NCBI GenBank assembly: GCA_029856125.1
Contig: JAHQWJ010000124.1
Span: 1-18,934, forward strand
DNA length: 18,934 nucleotides
Source: Promethearchaeia archaeon
Lineage (GTDB): Archaea > Asgardarchaeota > Lokiarchaeia > Sigyniarchaeales > SOKP01
Reading direction: 5' to 3'
A model generated the notes under the pieces. The model did not search any database. It worked only from the letters and a program-made list of their open reading frames with translations, and was not told the origin of the DNA. Shown piece after piece: positions 4,952-18,934 of the stretch; position 1 is the stretch's first letter; each line of letters starts with the position of its first letter. The position numbers and the translations under genes were made by a program.

Positions 4952-5299
4952 TCATTGATTTCCTTTATTTTCTCCTAAAACTTTTTTTATTTCTTCAAGA
5001 AGGAGCTGCTTTTCAGCAATGAAAAAATGAAGCTTACTTTTCTCGGGATGTTCACTATAAATAATTTCAGCTAATTCTTTTATTTCGTCTTTTGTTGGTT
5101 CTATAAGTTCCCCATTGACATTTTCATTCAGTAATAAAACCAGATTGTCCGTTTCAAAGGGTTTTATATCATATCCATTTTTTACATTTTTTAGAATCTT
5201 AACTACAAGCTCAGCTAAGTACCAAACCGATTTGTCGTAACTCTCTGTGGAGCGGTAACGTCGATAAGCGAGCACCTCAACTTCTTCTTTAGTAAACAC
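4952..5299 (-). CDS. Small protein with two DUF2934-like helical repeats
   Basis: GTG start with GGAG upstream. Internal duplication TKEEVEVLAYRRY..KSVWYLAE / TKDEIKELAEIIY..KLHFFIAE. Confidence 0.65.
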   Translation of the reverse strand: MFTKEEVEVLAYRRYRSTESYDKSVWYLAELVVKILKNVKNGYDIKPFETDNLVLLLNENVNGELIEPTKDEIKELAEIIYSEHPEKSKLHFFIAEKQLLLEEIKKVLGENKGNQ

Positions 5300-9269: not shown

Positions 9270-10445
9270 ATTAAAATTGCATATGCAGATAGGATTAACA
9301 AGCTCCCAGGATATATTTTCGCAGAAATTGAGCAATTAATTAATGAAAAGAAAAAGGAAGGAGTAGACATCATCCCATTAGGGATTGGTGACCCGGATTT
9401 AACGACTCCAGATATGATTATTAATGAACTAATTAAGCAAGTAAAAATTCCCGAAAATCAAAATTATCCCTCCAGTAAGGGAGAACAAGACTTCAGAGAA
9501 GCTGTACAGAAGTGGTATGAAGTCAGATTTAATTTAAAATTTGATGCTAACGATGAAGTAACTAGCCTAATAGGAGGAAAGGAGGGTGTAGCTAATATCG
9601 CTAGGGTGTTTATCAATCCCGGAGATATAGTATTGTGTCCTAACCCCGGTTATCCCGTATATGAAAATGGTGCCACTAAATTATGTGATGGAAAAATTCA
9701 TACGATTCCTTTGCTAAGAGAAAACGATTTTTTACCAGATTTTGAAATTATTGAAAGCAATATCTTAAAAAAAGCTAAATTAATGTATTTAAATTACCCA
9801 AATAATCCTACTGGTGCAATCGCAACAAAAAAATTTCTAAAAGAGGCCGTAGATAACGCTGAGGATTATAATTTCATCATTGTTTATGACAATCCGTATT
9901 CAGAATTCACGTACGAGGATTATATAGCTCCATCGCTTTTGCAGATAGATCAGAATCACATAGAAATTAATAGCTCTTCAAAAATGTTTTGTATGACGGG
10001 ATTTAGGTGCGGATGGGCAGTGGGGGATAAGGATATTATTAGTGGGTTAAGGAAGGTTAAGTCTCACATTGATTCGGGATGCCCAGTTTTTATTCAAAAA
10101 GCAGTGATAAAAGGTTTAAATGAATATAAATCGGGAGAAAAACCTAATATCGTGAGAGATAATGTAAAAATATATGAAAAAAGGCGTGATGTTTTAGTAA
10201 ACGGCCTCAATGATATCGGCTGGCCCACGGACAAGCCTAAAGCGACATTTTTCGTCTGGACCCACATACCGGAAGGAGAAACAAATAGCATGGAGTTCAT
10301 TAAAAAATTAATTAATGAGGGCGTTGTCTTAACTCCCGGCACGGGCTTTGGCACTTATGGAGAGGGTTATGTTAGATTTGCATTAACTCAACCAGTTGAT
10401 AAAATAAATGAAGCATTAGAAAGAATAGAAAGAATTCTCAATTAG
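9270..10445 (+). CDS. dapL: LL-diaminopimelate aminotransferase-like class I/II PLP aminotransferase
   Basis: Frame extends upstream of ATG 9414 with the conserved N-terminus ADRINKLPGYIFAEIE...GVDIIPLGIGDPD..TP. Also GGKEG, NYPNNPTG, YDNPY, SSSKMFCMTGFRCG (PLP Lys), GEGYVRFAL. Substrate assignment is by motif resemblance only. Confidence 0.75.
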   Translation: MKIAYADRINKLPGYIFAEIEQLINEKKKEGVDIIPLGIGDPDLTTPDMIINELIKQVKIPENQNYPSSKGEQDFREAVQKWYEVRFNLKFDANDEVTSLIGGKEGVANIARVFINPGDIVLCPNPGYPVYENGATKLCDGKIHTIPLLRENDFLPDFEIIESNILKKAKLMYLNYPNNPTGAIATKKFLKEAVDNAEDYNFIIVYDNPYSEFTYEDYIAPSLLQIDQNHIEINSSSKMFCMTGFRCGWAVGDKDIISGLRKVKSHIDSGCPVFIQKAVIKGLNEYKSGEKPNIVRDNVKIYEKRRDVLVNGLNDIGWPTDKPKATFFVWTHIPEGETNSMEFIKKLINEGVVLTPGTGFGTYGEGYVRFALTQPVDKINEALERIERILN

Positions 10446-10462: not shown

Positions 10463-10669
10463 CTATTTCTTAATAGATTTTCTTTCCCACCAATCATTAT
10501 CTTTATTAATTTCTTCCTCAACTTCAATTTCTCCTGGAACCCAGTTTGAACAATCTAGATATTTCCAAAAAGTATTTTCATTAACGTATGGATTTTCTTC
10601 CTTTATGGGAATAATATTACTTTCGATTATAATCTGACTTTCAATTTTTTCCAGAACTCGTTTTTCCAT
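10463..10669 (-). CDS. Small hypothetical protein A (68 aa), paralog of 11114-11290
   Basis: GGAGGTGA ribosome-binding site at 10674-10681; shares D-x-S-x3-PG-x-IE-x-E with the neighbouring small ORF. Confidence 0.75.
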   Translation of the reverse strand: MEKRVLEKIESQIIIESNIIPIKEENPYVNENTFWKYLDCSNWVPGEIEVEEEINKDNDWWERKSIKK

Positions 10670-10674
10670 TATCT

Positions 10675-10797
10675 CACCTCCAATTTTTTTTACTTTTCCT
10701 GAGGTGCCGGATTCCGCGATGATCTCGATTTAATTATATTAATTTCTTTGATGAGAGAGCAAATTAAAAAGAAGATCGAAAGGGATCGGCTCTCATC
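10675..10797 (-). promoter_or_regulatory. Putative attenuator/RNA switch, unit A
   Basis: Helix 1:3 (10790-10797 with 10750-10757), alternative helix 2:4 (10762-10790 with 10706-10735), and anti-SD CACCTC (10701-10706) complementary to GAGGTG (10675-10680). Confidence 0.6.
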
Positions 10798-10889
10798 TAT
10801 AATAATAATACTACTACTACTACTACAACGCCTAATAGAAGGCTGATAACTTTTACATATGAAAATTTAGTAGTATTATTTGAGATCAT
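10797..10889 (-). CDS. Putative leader peptide A, MISNNTTKFSYVKVISLLLGVVVVVVVLLL (30 aa)
   Basis: ATG about 24 nt downstream of TTTAAATA (leaderless spacing). GTT-(GTA)6-(TTA)3-TAG run ends exactly at the hairpin. Confidence 0.65.
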   Translation of the reverse strand: MISNNTTKFSYVKVISLLLGVVVVVVVLLL

Positions 10890-10912
10890 AAGAATAAATA
10901 AAAAAGTGAGGC

Positions 10913-10920
10913 TATTTAAA
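10913..10920 (-). promoter_or_regulatory. TATA box for unit A
   Basis: TTTAAATA on the minus strand preceded by purine-rich BRE-like AAATGAAACA. Confidence 0.55.
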
Positions 10921-11088
10921 TGTTTCATTTTTTATCCCCATTTTATAAAAAATCATATGAATATAATGAATTTAATATTATGACTTCTAAACTCTTTTAA
11001 AACTGACTATCTATCAATTAAATTAACCTAGAAGCCTTAAGAATATAGATTCTCCAAAATCTTATCGTTCAGAACCAATAAATAATAG

Positions 11089-11113
11089 AAAATAAAAAAT
11101 TGAAAAAAAATAA
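11089..11113 (-). terminator. T-rich terminator after small protein B
   Basis: Minus strand shows consecutive T8 and T5 tracts immediately after the stop at 11114. Confidence 0.5.
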
Positions 11114-11290
11114 TTATTTAGACAGTTTTTTGTATTTTTGTCTCAGATAAGCCATTTTACTTTGGTCCTCGCTTTCAATTTTACCAGGATAAGCATCTGA
11201 AATATCAAAAGACATCATTATGGGAGCTAGATCAGAACTCCAATCTTGATAATACTCCAATATTGATTCAGGACCTATTTTTTCAGCCAA
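11114..11290 (-). CDS. Small hypothetical protein B (58 aa from TTG 11290), paralog of 10463-10669
   Basis: GGAGGTGA at 11299-11306 lies inside the ORF-track start region and 8 nt before in-frame TTG 11290; shared motif FDISDAYPGKIESE. Confidence 0.72.
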   Translation of the reverse strand: MAEKIGPESILEYYQDWSSDLAPIMMSFDISDAYPGKIESEDQSKMAYLRQKYKKLSK

Positions 11291-11439
11291 TTCTCTTTTC
11301 ACCTCCATTCTTTTTTTTAGAATTTACGGCGAGAATTAAGCCCTTATTCCTCTTTTTTCTTAATAATTGAAAGGTTTTTTACTCAGAGAATAAATCCAAA
11401 AAATTATAAGAAAAAGAGAGAAAAAAGGATTTATTCTCT
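11285..11439 (-). promoter_or_regulatory. Putative attenuator/RNA switch, unit B
   Basis: Perfect 13-bp inverted repeat (11427-11439 / 11385-11397) around a U-rich loop; alternative ~26-bp helix (11402-11429 / 11341-11368); hairpin 11285-11342 covering the SD and TTG start. Confidence 0.65.
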
Positions 11440-11529
11440 TCATAATACTGTTACTAAGGGAATAATATTAAAGGCCTTCTTCGTACATTGGCCAACCCAT
11501 GAACCAGTATTATGCCGTGAGAAATTCAT
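11440..11529 (-). CDS. Putative leader peptide B, MNFSRHNTGSWVGQCTKKAFNIIPLVTVL (29 aa)
   Basis: ATG about 27 nt after TTTATTAG; stop TGA directly abuts the 13-bp hairpin; same length and position as leader A. Confidence 0.55.
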   Translation of the reverse strand: MNFSRHNTGSWVGQCTKKAFNIIPLVTVL

Positions 11530-11719
11530 TAATTATATGCATAAAGTAAATACATACTAATAAATATTGTGGGTGTTAATTCCCATTTGTTTGAGTATTT
11601 GAAAAATCTTTGACAATAGCGTAAATAATTTTATTCAATAACTCTTTAAACTCATTAAACATTACCACAGATATTATATCACTAATAGATATAATTTACT
11701 TAATTAACATTAGAGAATA

Positions 11720-13208: not shown

Positions 13209-14147
13209 ATGAAATCTAATAAAATCGATTCTTCTGATGAGAAGATAACAAAAGCAACAGAATTACTCTGGAAGATTTGGTGGTTTAGTTTTTATTTGAT
13301 AATTGTTCCATCATTAATCGCAGTTGTAGGATTTTTCATTTATTTTTTTATAGGTAAAGACCTTATTGTCTCAGTTGGTTTGTCTATTATAACTTTTATG
13401 TTTGTTTTATTATTCTTTTATAAGTCATTTGACAAATACAGGAAAACTCCCTTTTTTTCCAACAATGTAAATAATCTTTCCGCAAGAATCAATATTATTT
13501 TCTTAATTACTATCCTATCTTTAATCGTTACGCCTATTTTTGTGATATTTACTCCAGGAGATAACTACTTTGAGCTTTTACCTTTAATTTCTTTTAGTAT
13601 CTTGTATAATATTGTATACTATTATTATTATTTTCAACCCATTGGTTTTTTTGATCCTTCAGAAGATAAATTCAATCATGCAATTTCTTCGTCGCAAATT
13701 ATTAGACAACCCTATAATATCATAATCCTTGTGAATTACATTGTTCACATAGTATTCCTCTCTTATACTTTCAATACAAAAGTCTCGTGGTTATTTCCTC
13801 TCATTTGGAACATCGTATTTTATGTTATTTCTCGAGTCTCTAGCGTAAAAATCTGTAAAAATATTAAGATTTCGATCAGCAGCAAGAAACCGTTCATAGT
13901 AGACTTGACAATTTTTAAGAAAAAATTTGTAAATTCTTTATTAAGCTTAGTATTCGTGCTCTTAATTCAAATGCCTTTCGTTATAGTTATCGTCTACATG
14001 TATGTTGGTATTCATCACGACTTAATAGAAATCGTAAACATATCGTTGTTGTCTCTCGTGTTTTTAGCATTTTACTTTAAAATTAGATTATACGTAAGTT
14101 CATTCTACAGTACATTTCTAAGGAGGTTCAAAATCAATGAGTTCTAA
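13209..14147 (+). CDS. Hypothetical polytopic membrane protein (~8 TM)
   Basis: 312-aa ORF of alternating hydrophobic segments and short charged loops; its end overlaps the next ORF by 11 nt. Confidence 0.75.
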   Translation: MKSNKIDSSDEKITKATELLWKIWWFSFYLIIVPSLIAVVGFFIYFFIGKDLIVSVGLSIITFMFVLLFFYKSFDKYRKTPFFSNNVNNLSARINIIFLITILSLIVTPIFVIFTPGDNYFELLPLISFSILYNIVYYYYYFQPIGFFDPSEDKFNHAISSSQIIRQPYNIIILVNYIVHIVFLSYTFNTKVSWLFPLIWNIVFYVISRVSSVKICKNIKISISSKKPFIVDLTIFKKKFVNSLLSLVFVLLIQMPFVIVIVYMYVGIHHDLIEIVNISLLSLVFLAFYFKIRLYVSSFYSTFLRRFKINEF

Positions 14148-17100
14148 CAATGCTGAAGAGGTTGACACTGGTGAGATTAAAAATTTTATCAAGTTAAATT
14201 TCGTTGTCTCAGTCAGTTTAATTATTCTAATCTTCTCAATTTCATCATTGAATAATAATCCTTTAATCAGTGTTATTGCATTGCCAATACTTTTTATTCT
14301 CACCTATTACGAAGAAAGAGCGAACTTTATTACTACTTTTTACAGTAAGTACATATATCTATTTAATAGCCTAGGCATGGTAATCATTGTAATCTTCTGG
14401 ATCTTGCCGTTTTTTGGAATATTGCAGTTTCTTTTTCTCACCCTTTCCTTATATGTAATATTTTATATTTTTGAGAGGCTAAAGTATTTTCAAGAAAAAA
14501 CGGTATTAATAATTCAAAACCTGCTTGTTGTTGCCAGTTTTACTATTATTTTGTATTCTTTCTTCCCAATAATCGAAATCGTATACATACAGTTCATTGT
14601 AGATCCAAGTGTGCTTTTATTCTCCAATATATTAATTCACACTTTTATCGTCTTAGCCATAACATTATTATCGTTTTATTTTTTATATGCTCGCATTCGA
14701 TTATACGAAAAACCTTGGAAACTCTTTAATTATTGTATTGTGACTCTTTTTTTACTATTAGAAACGACTTGGTTTGCATTAGTTATTATTAAGAATCTAG
14801 CATTAGGAATTCTTGCAGTAATTCAAGGAGAATTAATATTTTACACAATTCTACTTCCAATAGTTTTCCTTTTATTCGTGCTTTTCAACTATATTATTCG
14901 CATATTCTCTCGAGAAATCAGCTTGAATTATAGCTATTATGCATGCTGGTTTTTGTTGTTCTCGATTTTTTTTACAATAATCATAATTTTTTGGAATAAT
15001 TTTGTGATTCTGCTTCTAGATTTAGTATTTCTTTCAGTTTTTACTTTAATTAACCTTAGATTTGGACACATTCTAAAAAAAGTAAAAGATTCTACCTTCA
15101 ATTTTATAATTAGAGTTGATAGTTTTGCGATTTTAATTGAAATTTTCTTATTATTTTATGGGATCTTCAGTTTTGTATTCCTTTTGGATGAATTCCTTGC
15201 TTTATTCCTTTCTTGTTGCATCATTGGCCTCATTTTTAATTTAATTCCTTCAAATGTAGTAATTATTCCTAGAAAAGTAAAAATAACTTGGACCTTACTT
15301 ATCTTGATATTTAGTATAGTGATTGCAGGGTTTTTCTTCTTAAGCGCAAATATAGATGAGATTTATGTATATTTAATTGCACCGATTATTTTTTGTTTCT
15401 TGGTTTTCGCTCCGATTTATTACCTGTATGGCGAAAAAGTATTAAAACCTAAATTCATCGCAATTTATACTTATTGTTCGTCATGGGTGCTCATGTTTTT
15501 GTTTTTCGCTTTGAATTTTTTTATAATTGTAATATACTTTGAACTACATCTAATTATTGGTACCATTTTTAACCTATTGTTTATAACCGTTTGTTTAATC
15601 ATCCTAATTTCATACGGAAAGAAAATAAGAATGCTTAAAGAATCAAAATCTAAGTCTCTTTTGAACATTATATCTTATCCCATTGTATTAGAAATATTTG
15701 CTATACTTATTACGATTTTCATGATTTATTTGAAATTAGACTTACTTTTATCTCTGTTTTTAACTCTAACGATAATAAGTCTTATAGTATCTATGGATTC
15801 AAAAGAACATAAACTCTTTCCTAAGGCCCTAACCTTAATATTAAATTCATTTACGTTATATTTAGGCTTATTTATGGTGGGATATTATAGTGCGATTTAC
15901 ACTAAGGACTCGTTCTTAGTTTATTTTATACCTCTCATTTTAGTTAGCTTGCTCTCTTATATTCCCATTTATTATCTCCGCAAAAGAAATGTTATAAATA
16001 AAAAATACTTCCTAATCTATCATTTTATTTGCTCTAGCATCATAGTGCTGTCTGTCTTTATATTTAACTTCTTTATAATTACTACATTGTTTTCACCAAT
16101 CTTAAATTGGTTAATCGTACTTAATATTCTCTATATAACTATTGCGTGTTATTACATTTTGAAATTTGGAGTTAAGATAAATGTTATCTCTATAGAAAAA
16201 GTTATGGTAATTGAAAAATATATTAGCTATTTAATAATGCTAGAAGTTTTCTTCATAATGTTCGCAATCTTTAACCAACAACTTCAATTTGAGCCGCTTT
16301 TTGCAGCGTACATATCGTTCGCTCTTACCTGCTTGATTATCAACTTTTTTACAAACAAGAGAATTTTATTTACAGAAAAAATTTCGATTGGATTTAATAT
16401 AGGAACTTTGCTTTTCACCAGTATTCTCATCTCGTTTTACTTAAATTTATTTCTATCTCCTTCGGTTTACGCATGTATTATCCCTCTGCTGATCTTAAGT
16501 GTAACACTGTTATTCCCTCTGTTTTACTCTTTAAATAAGAATGTGTTCACCAGCTTTGTGCAGAAATTGTTAACATTTGATAGTTTAGTCATATCTGGAT
16601 TAATAATTTCGCTTCCTTATATAATAGGATTAGATTTTATTAGATTAGGTATAGCTGTAGATTATTACATAATCAATAGTTCGGCAATTGCTTTATTTTT
16701 TGGATTTTTAGTTTTTCTAGAATTTCTTTTTGATAAATATAAGCTTAAAGAATCTTATTTCGTTTCTATTAAAACTTGCCAGATTTTCACCTGGGTGGTT
16801 TTATCTTTTGTTGTATCCTTGAAGATTTTTGCGGTTTTAAACTCTTTCACTAGTAATATTGGATTCAATATCAGTTGTTCTTCATTAGTATTTCTAGTTT
16901 TAAATCTTGTTATCTTAATTCCGCTCGAAAATCTCAAGCAGAGGGCATTTGAAAACGATCTAAGTAAATATGATTATTACAGAATCTACAAAATATACGA
17001 ATACACTAAAAACATATCTTATTTTTTCATCGAATTCATGATAGCTTCGCTTACTATTTTTCTGGTTCCGCTGCCTATCATTTATTCACTTCTTCAGCTC

Positions 17101-18934
17101 CAAGAGTCCCTACTATTAACATTAACTACATATGTTGGAATATTTCTGTTAAGTTACCTAGTAGTATCAACTATCAGTCGCTACTTATTCAAAATTGAAT
17201 TTTCAAGACTCAGATGGGCTTTTGATATATCCGCATGGTTAATAATTAAATTTTTAATGTGTTTCTATCTTTTAATATTCCCTGCCCAATTATCTCTTAT
17301 ACAAAGGATTGGTTTACCTTTACTAATTGTAGTCTTCCTCAGCCCTATTACAATTTATTATCTAAGAAATAACTTTTTTATCTCTGATGAAACTCTAATC
17401 CTTTGCAAAAGACTCATCTATTTTTCTTTCTATTTTTTCTTAATTATTATATTCAGTGAATTATACTGGAATTATAGTCAGATTATTCCATTTTACAGTA
17501 CAAATCAACCACTACGACTTAGTATTTTATTCTGTGGTATTTATTCGTTATGCAATTATTATCTGGTTAAATATAATGATAGAATTGAAAATGTTTCTGA
17601 ATTCAAACTAATGAAAATATTACTTGGTCCATCTCTACTTCTATTTACTTTCTTTTCTATTTTTCCTATTTTTCCGAGTGTTTTCGAATATTTTACTTAT
17701 GTATTTTTTATTATTATGATCTATCTCTTTATTTCAAATAGGAATCGCAATTTTGTTTTTCGAACTATTAGCTACTTCTCACTTACCTTGCTAATTTTAG
17801 TAAAATTAATTACAACTCTAAATTATTATATGTTAATTCCTTCATTCGATCTATTCGGCTTATCTTTTTATCTTTTTTATTTCAGTTTTTCGCTAATGAT
17901 TGTCTTATTCTTTTCTATTGTGTTAAACATAGGGAATGGTAATGTAATCGAAAAATTCACTTTATATACATTAATATCGATTATAACCTTTCTTTTACTA
18001 CTCTACAATACCATAATTCCTTTATTATATATCATTTCTTTCTCTCTGTTCTTATTTTTGTTATTAACAGGTAATTTCTACTACAAGCAAAAAAATGATA
18101 TTTACAAGTGGTTCATCCGACCCTGTGTTTTGCTTATGGTATTTAGCCTCATTAGTTTTCTGTCTTACTATATTCTATTTAATAATCCCACTTTTATAAA
18201 TTATAATCCAATACTGACATTCACTCTAACTTTAAGCGTTACTAGTATTTCTTATGTAGGGACCTATAATAAAGCCCCAGAGAAATTCAGACGGAATTCT
18301 TTCTATATTGCCTTTTCCTCCTATATTATTTCTATTCCAACTTTTATGTATTTTTTCCTAAATGCGTCTTTTAATTTACCTGTATGGGATCCTTTCTTGC
18401 TTATAATAACCATCAATATTGGTATCCTTCTTTTCTACCTATCAGTAGGCTTTTACTACTGGAAATTCTCTTGGGTAATATGGAAAATGGGGTGGAGGTT
18501 ATGGATTATTGTTCCCTTCTTAAATTTTTATATCATTAACGAGAGTTTTACTGACATTAATATTTATACCAACGCACTAGATTTCTTTGGGATCAACATC
18601 AGTGGTTCATTTATAATATCTTTTACAATTTGTGTTTTACTTTCTCTACCCTTTTGGTACACATGGATAAAAAAACATTTCTCCCGAATTCTACTAATAG
18701 TTTGGAGTTTTAGCTTATTCTTTTTATATTGGTTTAGTCAAAATGTTTTTACTGAAAATTTAGTGATTACTAATATAGTATTTTTTGTTTTTGCAGTATC
18801 TCTTCTAATGCCGGTTTTTTATAGAATGAGAATGTGGAAGGTTATTACTCTGTTATGGTTATTTTACATTTTTATAAATGTAAGCTTCCTCGTTATATTA
18901 TTCCAAGTAATTTTATTACCACTAGAGATTAACT
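14137..18934 (+). CDS. Giant polytopic membrane protein (>1599 aa, 3'-truncated by window)
   Basis: ATG 14137 (MSSNNAEEVDTGEIKNFIKLNF...) with AGGAGG at 14121-14126. Read codon by codon there is no stop to the window end. Almost entirely hydrophobic helices separated by short loops. Confidence 0.9.
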   Translation, partial: MSSNNAEEVDTGEIKNFIKLNFVVSVSLIILIFSISSLNNNPLISVIALPILFILTYYEERANFITTFYSKYIYLFNSLGMVIIVIFWILPFFGILQFLFLTLSLYVIFYIFERLKYFQEKTVLIIQNLLVVASFTIILYSFFPIIEIVYIQFIVDPSVLLFSNILIHTFIVLAITLLSFYFLYARIRLYEKPWKLFNYCIVTLFLLLETTWFALVIIKNLALGILAVIQGELIFYTILLPIVFLLFVLFNYIIRIFSREISLNYSYYACWFLLFSIFFTIIIIFWNNFVILLLDLVFLSVFTLINLRFGHILKKVKDSTFNFIIRVDSFAILIEIFLLFYGIFSFVFLLDEFLALFLSCCIIGLIFNLIPSNVVIIPRKVKITWTLLILIFSIVIAGFFFLSANIDEIYVYLIAPIIFCFLVFAPIYYLYGEKVLKPKFIAIYTYCSSWVLMFLFFALNFFIIVIYFELHLIIGTIFNLLFITVCLIILISYGKKIRMLKESKSKSLLNIISYPIVLEIFAILITIFMIYLKLDLLLSLFLTLTIISLIVSMDSKEHKLFPKALTLILNSFTLYLGLFMVGYYSAIYTKDSFLVYFIPLILVSLLSYIPIYYLRKRNVINKKYFLIYHFICSSIIVLSVFIFNFFIITTLFSPILNWLIVLNILYITIACYYILKFGVKINVISIEKVMVIEKYISYLIMLEVFFIMFAIFNQQLQFEPLFAAYISFALTCLIINFFTNKRILFTEKISIGFNIGTLLFTSILISFYLNLFLSPSVYACIIPLLILSVTLLFPLFYSLNKNVFTSFVQKLLTFDSLVISGLIISLPYIIGLDFIRLGIAVDYYIINSSAIALFFGFLVFLEFLFDKYKLKESYFVSIKTCQIFTWVVLSFVVSLKIFAVLNSFTSNIGFNISCSSLVFLVLNLVILIPLENLKQRAFENDLSKYDYYRIYKIYEYTKNISYFFIEFMIASLTIFLVPLPIIYSLLQLQESLLLTLTTYVGIFLLSYLVVSTISRYLFKIEFSRLRWAFDISAWLIIKFLMCFYLLIFPAQLSLIQRIGLPLLIVVFLSPITIYYLRNNFFISDETLILCKRLIYFSFYFFLIIIFSELYWNYSQIIPFYSTNQPLRLSILFCGIYSLCNYYLVKYNDRIENVSEFKLMKILLGPSLLLFTFFSIFPIFPSVFEYFTYVFFIIMIYLFISNRNRNFVFRTISYFSLTLLILVKLITTLNYYMLIPSFDLFGLSFYLFYFSFSLMIVLFFSIVLNIGNGNVIEKFTLYTLISIITFLLLLYNTIIPLLYIISFSLFLFLLLTGNFYYKQKNDIYKWFIRPCVLLMVFSLISFLSYYILFNNPTFINYNPILTFTLTLSVTSISYVGTYNKAPEKFRRNSFYIAFSSYIISIPTFMYFFLNASFNLPVWDPFLLIITINIGILLFYLSVGFYYWKFSWVIWKMGWRLWIIVPFLNFYIINESFTDINIYTNALDFFGINISGSFIISFTICVLLSLPFWYTWIKKHFSRILLIVWSFSLFFLYWFSQNVFTENLVITNIVFFVFAVSLLMPVFYRMRMWKVITLLWLFYIFINVSFLVILFQVILLPLEIN
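15061..16640 (+). repeat. Three protein-level tandem repeats of 184 aa (552 nt) within the giant membrane protein
   Basis: Anchors recur at exactly 552 nt: FG/YG/FG at 15061, 15613, 16165; EIF/EIF/EVF at 15139, 15691, 16243; PIYY/PIYY/PLFY at 15412, 15964, 16516. Confidence 0.8.

Follow-up and report, generated by a model that had tools for sequence, protein, structure and literature searches.

Tandem uORF-led units ahead of small-protein genes in a Lokiarchaeia family: candidate ribosome-read attenuators for branched-chain amino acids

Leader-peptide attenuation is a textbook bacterial mechanism, known in enterobacteria from ivbL of ilvBN, ilvL of ilvGMEDA, leuL, trpL and pheM of pheST. Among the mycobacterial leaderless poly-Cys attenuators, the locus that has been tested acts by SD sequestration (10.1101/834739), and in Streptomyces mutation of the control codons of the ilvB and leuA leaders has little or no effect, which is not the behaviour of a classical attenuator (PMC1262725). 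Rho-dependent leader attenuators are also known, such as E. coli tnaC and Salmonella mgtL, at which the position of the ribosome decides the access of the termination factor. No archaeal leader-peptide attenuator was found in the literature searched, the coverage of which is incomplete, and nothing found there runs against the original prediction's statement that no such system has been described in Asgard archaea.

The window, that is the whole stretch of 18,934 nucleotides analysed here, is an entire contig of a 3.69-Mb Lokiarchaeia genome. Its minus strand encodes two consecutive units, flanked by a convergent LL-diaminopimelate-aminotransferase-like gene on one side and by a divergent GH4 glycosidase on the other, a neighbourhood retained at most homologous loci. 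Each unit comprises a TATA box, an uORF of 29-30 codons, a stop-adjacent stem with a U-rich loop, a competing downstream arm, an SD and a small ORF. This anatomy and its conservation within one Lokiarchaeia family (84 units read) are shown by the comparison, the uORF being always 5' of its cognate gene at a fixed distance of 115-160 nt. Nine genomes that carry both units have kept the ATG, stop, frame, stem, U-tract, downstream arm and SD of each, and the spacer between the units has diverged. The shared layout initially described for the two units held, every named part being present, and the finding that would have refuted it, homologs devoid of uORFs or helices, was not made since homologs keep both. 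We consider it likely that in each unit the ribosome reads the supply of branched-chain amino acids and that the resulting attenuation controls a small-protein family not described so far. The attenuation interpretation first proposed is thereby supported by comparative evidence only, in the absence of transcript, ribosome or reporter data. Like enterobacterial attenuators, the units combine a short uORF bearing cognate codon runs with alternative helices, before biosynthesis and aminoacyl-tRNA synthetase genes. Unlike them, they have an archaeal TATA promoter, a probably leaderless uORF and control codons abutting the stop, they have neither a GC-rich hairpin with a trailing U-run, the U-tract being in the loop, nor any Rfam match, and some of their targets are unknown small proteins.

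Three further features of the window were recorded. The conserved N-terminus of the aminotransferase (9270-9414, plus strand) extends upstream of the first ATG, directly after an in-frame stop, and its start is therefore probably an ATT near 9270. A very long and almost wholly hydrophobic ORF of over 1599 aa (14137-18933, plus strand) runs past the contig end, and a 115-aa ORF (4952-5299, minus strand) has an apparent internal repeat and no Pfam match.

The TATA-like box of unit 1, TTTATTAG (11557..11564, minus strand, as are all features of the two units), is replaced by a canonical TTTATAA(A/G) in distant homologs, its first T being mostly 31-36 nt ahead of the leader ATG. Just upstream, an inverted repeat TGGG-N8-CCCA (11570..11585), conserved in the genus, is a possible transcription-factor site, a function that is inferred only; the TGGG-containing repeat is inverted in the source genome and direct in other clades. 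The TATA box of unit 2, TTTAAATA (10913..10920), is found in 11/11 homologs, 31 nt ahead of the leader ATG. The distance of 31-34 nt between TATA and leader ATG in most units fits a 5' UTR of 0-5 nt, and leader uORF 1 is likely leaderless or nearly so, with no TSS data at hand. Furthermore, no conserved TATA exists between hairpin and SD, where strict matches amount to 0.00-0.10 per 15 nt versus 35-100% of units ahead of the leader. This absence is shown, and a promoter proper to the small protein downstream of the hairpin, which would also have refuted the proposal, was thus not encountered.

Leader uORF 1 (11440..11529) has 29 codons, from the ATG at 11529 to the TGA at 11440, and a C-terminal I-I-P-L-V-T-V-L; it is conserved in 63 units, with a dN/dS of 0.46 in 11 close homologs. 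Leader uORF 2 (10797..10889) has 30 codons, from the ATG at 10889 to the TAG at 10797, and ends in Val7-Leu3; its dN/dS is about 1.1 and its length is variable. A 43-aa reading of leader 2 was rejected, as its frame runs through the promoter and its ATG is lost in one homologous locus (L002). Both leaders keep start, stop and frame in the nine genomes, with indels exclusively of triplets, which is independent evidence of coding for leader 1 and not for leader 2, because the indels of the latter lie inside a (GTA)n(TTA)n repeat. That the leaders are translated remains an inference.

The original prediction that the leaders end in Val/Leu/Ile held, strongly for leader 2 and moderately for leader 1. 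The last 10 codons of leader 2 contain on average 4.7 Val and 4.5 Leu (11 homologs), and it ranks first genome-wide among 446 TATA-preceded intergenic uORFs for Val/Leu/Ile in this segment. Leader 1 has a mean of 5.2 V/I/L in its last 10 codons versus 2.5 expected, an enrichment that is moderate only, and its tail is read in another frame in 20 units. Judging from codon content, leader 2 likely senses Val and Leu; the amino acid read by leader 1 is less clear, with about 5/10 V/I/L and the frame-shifted tail.

Two explanations based on the peptides themselves must be considered. Leader 1 might be a nascent-chain arrest peptide whose G-x-K-R-A-x-I-P motif senses a metabolite or a drug and not tRNA charging. 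In favour of this proposal, M, H-N-T, G and I are invariant and K, A and P nearly invariant in one genus, and the dN/dS of this leader is 0.46. Against it, pairing accounts for H-N-T and the final V-L, other genera have a different sequence in place of the motif ahead of the same protein, and the proposal is inapplicable to leader 2; we regard it as very unlikely. A fixed peptide motif of the SecM/TnaC type selected across homologs was not found, the leader 1 motif being limited to part of the family. Nascent-chain arrest, initially offered as an alternative source of stalling, is unsupported for leader 2, because of its dN/dS and variable length, and is a minor option for leader 1. Alternatively, the products of the uORFs could themselves be functional, as small hydrophobic peptides of a type I toxin-like or membrane kind, the hairpin being a mere terminator. 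The 17-residue hydrophobic tail of leader 2 speaks for this view. However, the tail length ranges from about 10 to 17, no selection on its sequence is seen, leader 1 is not hydrophobic, and the constant position of the uORFs 5' of the cognate gene, with no internal promoter, is at odds with it, so that this explanation is also held to be very unlikely.

The RNA core that follows the leaders consists of a stem S1 starting at the stop codon, with a U-rich loop, and of a helix S2 formed by the U-tract with a purine-rich arm that lies some 30 nt downstream, the pairing of which extends into the S1 5' arm. In unit 1, S1 (11385..11439; 13 bp, 11439-11427/11397-11385) encloses the U-tract 11426-11408; the downstream arm (11361-11341, in the element 11326..11361) forms S2 with this U-tract and reaches into the 5' arm of S1. 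The SD of the small protein P1, GGAGGTGA (11299..11306), is near-invariant among homologs. In unit 2, S1 (10751..10796; 10796-10785/10764-10751), with the U-tract 10777-10762, is shortened by a 12-nt deletion present in the source genome and one relative, and covariance model R1 scores this region at E 7e-4 in the source genome. It is followed by an element (10701..10735) holding the downstream arm (10735-10721) and a CACCTC anti-SD (10706-10701), and by the SD of the small protein P2, GGAGGTGA (10674..10681). The either/or pairing originally predicted held only in part: the arm can pair with the U-tract while S1 stands, in a pseudoknot geometry, and S1 and the downstream arm exclude each other because the arm extends into the S1 5' arm.

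With a plain MAFFT alignment, the paired cells amount to 87%, and every slid control is lower. S2 shows 15 compensatory (pair-to-pair double) changes on the tree versus a null mean of 1.0, whereas inner S1 shows a single one, not above the null, and mostly pair-preserving single changes. The claim that the sequences have diverged and the pairings are kept is thus borne out for S2, the covariation of which is shown; inner S1 is conserved and does not covary. Loops with two or more U4 tracts occur in 52/63 aligned elements versus 12% of comparably long AT-rich background windows, and 44/63 elements have no U4 after S1, the U-tracts sitting inside the loop. Compared with shuffles, unit 1 folds with z scores of -3.1 and -4.1 and leader 2 with its stem with a z of -2.3; the post-stop part of unit 2 alone folds no better than shuffles (z +1.1). 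The search of Rfam returned only sub-threshold miRNA-like matches, none near the gathering score. Both leaders also contain a helix, absent from the initial description, between their 5' part and their last codons, in each case with stronger pairing than synonymous recodings give. In unit 1 (11441..11514) it is a 10-bp complement of 11514-11505 with 11450-11441, stronger than after synonymous recoding in 39/43 homologs, and in unit 2 (10804..10880) a 13-bp complement of 10880-10868 with 10816-10804.

The same and related leaders are found before amino-acid genes. A scan of the TATA-preceded uORFs of the source genome placed leader 2 first and returned three more, at leuA, leuS and an FrhB-like gene. 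On another contig, a Leu-run leader with a single hairpin precedes leuA-leuC-leuD (6231-6133, minus strand); a Leu-run leader with the RNA core precedes the archaeal LeuRS gene (25752-25844, also on another contig), and an Ile-rich leader precedes the FrhB-like gene (L115:1480-3143, likewise on another contig). A profile built from the small-protein loci alone detects the leuS leader (E 2.5e-7) and the FrhB-like leader (E 3e-4). The RNA core and a Leu-run leader are present at 28/28 readable archaeal leuS loci, and the core with an Ile-rich leader in 15/15 of the closest orthologs of the FrhB-like gene; more distant homologs of the latter have the leader in 0/9. At leuA, 30/30 loci have a Leu-run leader with a different RNA, the single hairpin, and at trpB2 a Trp-rich leader is found in 27/30 loci, again with an RNA different from the core; in the source genome it lies at L259:388-459. 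The covariance model matches 117/135 genomes of the family, with one to four copies each; although trained on many of the counted loci, it yielded new targets, namely ilvE in one genome and, in other genera, a bacterial-type leuS in three (L251, L246, L248, L250), and the core is therefore attached to non-orthologous genes. The genomes are kin and the counts are not independent, the independent points being five or six distinct target genes.

With covariance model R1, no match was obtained in five genomes from outside the family; no Leu leader was seen ahead of leuS at four loci of another family, nor ahead of leuA at 7/11 loci outside the family. Within the source genome, a second, bacterial-looking LeuRS has no such leader. 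Side observations at these targets include a deletion of about 40 nt after the downstream arm of the source-genome leuS leader, relative to close relatives; the occurrence of the leuA leader with its single hairpin in four genomes from another family; trpB2 leaders of relatives with as many as five Trp; a W-P-W uORF ahead of the trpB2 homolog of two genomes that belong to another family (L299, L300); and the C-terminal ~100 aa of the FrhB-like protein, which by eye look like a winged helix.

The matching of the codon runs to the genes is shown. Mean contents of the last 10 codons are 8.2 L for leuA, 6.1 L for leuS, 4.5 I for the FrhB-like gene and 4.7 V with 4.5 L for leader 2 of the window, against a background of 0.10 L, 0.06 V and 0.10 I per codon; among 1473 intergenic uORFs the leuA leader has the strongest single-residue bias, and its runs mix TTA, TTG, CTT, CTC and CTA. 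A leader composition that tracks the target gene is a hallmark of ribosome-read attenuation, here on comparative evidence only. Independent support for the branched-chain reading comes from the occurrence of the shared RNA core ahead of leuS, ilvE and the gene with the Ile leader. The actinobacterial LEU element and ilvB/leuS leaders (PMC1262725) are similar in their Leu/branched-chain runs before leuA, leuS and ilvB and their pseudoknot versus alternative fold, and unlike the present units in sequence and domain. Of the traits of classical attenuators, cognate codons matching the downstream gene are met for leuS, leuA, ilvE and trpB2, as are conserved alternative helices placed for a choice by the ribosome (S1 versus S2 with its extension, S2 covarying). 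Neither an intrinsic terminator nor a match to an Rfam leader family is found, and because these two tests failed the units are not classed as classical attenuators.

These leaders also bear on a third explanation, a switch bound by a protein or a ligand (e.g. the small proteins or an amino-acid-binding regulator), the codon runs arising merely from selection for helices and from trinucleotide slippage. The runs are indeed mainly GTA/TTA/ATT and paired with the leader 5' part, leader 2 has a dN/dS close to 1.1 and the frame changes in 20 unit 1 leaders, and the Streptomyces result (PMC1262725) provides a precedent that calls for caution with the Lokiarchaeia leaders. Nevertheless, ATG, stop and frame are kept, the identity of the run varies with the target gene and the core is constant, the leuA runs use mixed Leu codons, and the Trp-rich leaders of trpB2 cannot arise from such repeats. 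We deem this explanation unlikely and retain attenuation read by the ribosome.

According to the attenuation model, the TATA promoter would give a leaderless or nearly leaderless transcript beginning at the uORF, as inferred from spacing, and the speed of the ribosome on the Val/Leu/Ile codons before the stop would report on charged tRNA, as inferred from the matched leaders. When amino acids are plentiful, a ribosome at the stop would cover the S1 5' arm and leave the U-tract unprotected, and the small-protein gene would be off. Upon starvation, the ribosome would stall some codons earlier and S1 would form, after which the downstream arm would pair both with the U-tract and with the 5' arm of S1, pairings that rest on folding in silico; the gene would then be on. 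Stalling itself is inferred, as is the sign of the switch (on when starved), which is deduced from the leuS, ilvE and leuA targets. In folding with a ribosome mask, a ribosome at the stop is predicted to prevent S1 and one six codons earlier to permit it. At equilibrium the U-tract is about equally unpaired in the stall and stop states and differences at the SD are small, so the switch must be kinetic; this folding did not discriminate between termination and SD occlusion as outputs.

The output could be purely translational, with the same sensing, the leader or downstream arm hiding the SD and a stalled ribosome freeing it, a sub-case of the main reading. In its favour, unit 2 has its conserved CACCTC anti-SD, with pairing above that of shuffles in 10/11 homologs of this class only, and the predicted accessibility of the SD is higher in the stall than in the stop state for small-protein units (0.55/0.42, 0.25/0.13, 0.56/0.30) and in the stall than in the free state for leuA (0.66/0.39). 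On the other hand, leuS shows no difference between stall and stop (0.55/0.54), the leuS, FrhB-like and P0 classes (P0 being a small protein described below) lack the anti-SD pairing despite the same core, and masking upstream RNA raises SD accessibility trivially. Because of this lack, the shared core does not appear to be an SD trap. The present units, with a uORF inferred from spacing to be leaderless, resemble the mycobacterial leaderless poly-Cys attenuators (10.1101/834739) in their short ORF, cognate codon run, single signal shared by several loci and lack of an intrinsic terminator; unlike them, the Lokiarchaeia units conserve an anti-SD in one class only and have one homologous RNA core across loci. 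Given attenuation, SD occlusion as the output is clearly less likely than not, in its own right and as a rival to termination, and in unit 2 it may be a layer added to termination.

The output that we favour, given attenuation, although with no better than balanced odds, is U-tract-dependent termination or cleavage by aCPSF1/FttA, because classes that have no anti-SD nonetheless retain the core, and the U4 tracts are retained as well. The feature expected of an aCPSF1/FttA terminator, two or more U4 tracts, is met, and an aCPSF1 gene is present in the source genome. The Lokiarchaeum aCPSF1 responds to the number of U4 tracts, which are linked to efficient aCPSF1 termination (PMC8716108). As at tnaC and mgtL, the position of the ribosome would gate the access of a factor to an unstructured loading site; unlike there, the presumed factor is aCPSF1/FttA, a nuclease that recognises U-rich RNA (PMC11616081, PMC8716108), a role not shown here. 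Against the simple version of termination, FttA reads RNA from -1 to -36 (PMC11616081), so that the loop could be read before S1 closes, and a ribosome at the stop might block FttA, which would be the wrong sign for biosynthetic genes. A mixed or other output is possible.

The genes that would be so controlled in the window encode two small proteins under purifying selection, as their dN/dS of 0.20 (P1) and 0.43 (P2) indicate. P1 (11114..11290) has 58 aa and a TTG start at 11290; a 64-aa reading from an upstream ATG was rejected owing to a frameshift in one homologous locus (L006). It is present in 102/134 other genomes of the family, with 19 representatives at 50% identity, and has no credible homolog outside this Lokiarchaeia family; homologs of the small proteins carry the database labels Lokiarchaeota/Promethearchaeota. 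Start codons, inferred from position, are TTG in 22 units, ACG in 15, CTG in 13 and ATG in 10, that is near-cognate in 50/60 units, behind a strong SD; an out-of-frame ATG lies next to the SD in some P1 homologs (L020, L023, L058). P2 (10463..10669; 68 aa) matches a broad P1-family profile with a probability of 95% and an E of 4e-8, narrow P1 and P2 profiles matching only weakly, and the motif originally said to be shared by these 58-68 aa proteins held, P1 and P2 being paralogs by the broad profile. Other genera have a third protein, P0, of 45 aa and ending in I-A-W, behind a Val/Leu-run leader, and P1 comes next under its own TATA, without a leader; two proteins are P0-P1 fusions, both behind Val/Leu leaders, and the P0 family matches neither P1 nor P2 beyond a motif. 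Tandem led copies of small-protein genes arise repeatedly, and paralog arrays include three paralogs behind one leader (L095) and two separately led paralogs (L080/L257).

P1 and P2 have no Pfam, PDB sequence, Foldseek or usable Atlas match, and AlphaFold predicts with confidence a C-terminal helix only (pTM 0.24-0.30). The acidic-hydrophobic motif of P1 may resemble the C-termini of the ribosomal stalk, a likeness on which no claim is based. We suggest, as a weak inference with no known partner and no expression data, that P1 and P2 may be starvation-induced regulators acting via their short conserved motif and C-terminal helix. In a bolder reading, which we hold to be rather more doubtful than probable, Lokiarchaeia would possess an amino-acid regulon read by the ribosome, with its output set by the CPSF73-like nuclease aCPSF1/FttA, a stalled ribosome letting the pseudoknot or long helix hide the U-tract, and with targets including starvation-induced small regulators throttled by ACG/CTG/TTG starts.

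If the attenuation reading is true, transcription-translation coupling would be functional and serve gene regulation in the archaea closest to eukaryotes, for which direct evidence of coupling is scarce (PMC13681488), with a possible tie between the position of the ribosome and the archaeal homolog of CPSF73. The addition made by this window, inferred from comparative evidence only, would be small-protein targets of leader control, and the leaders offer a first hint at the function of an unannotated protein family that roughly three quarters of the genomes of this Lokiarchaeia family encode.
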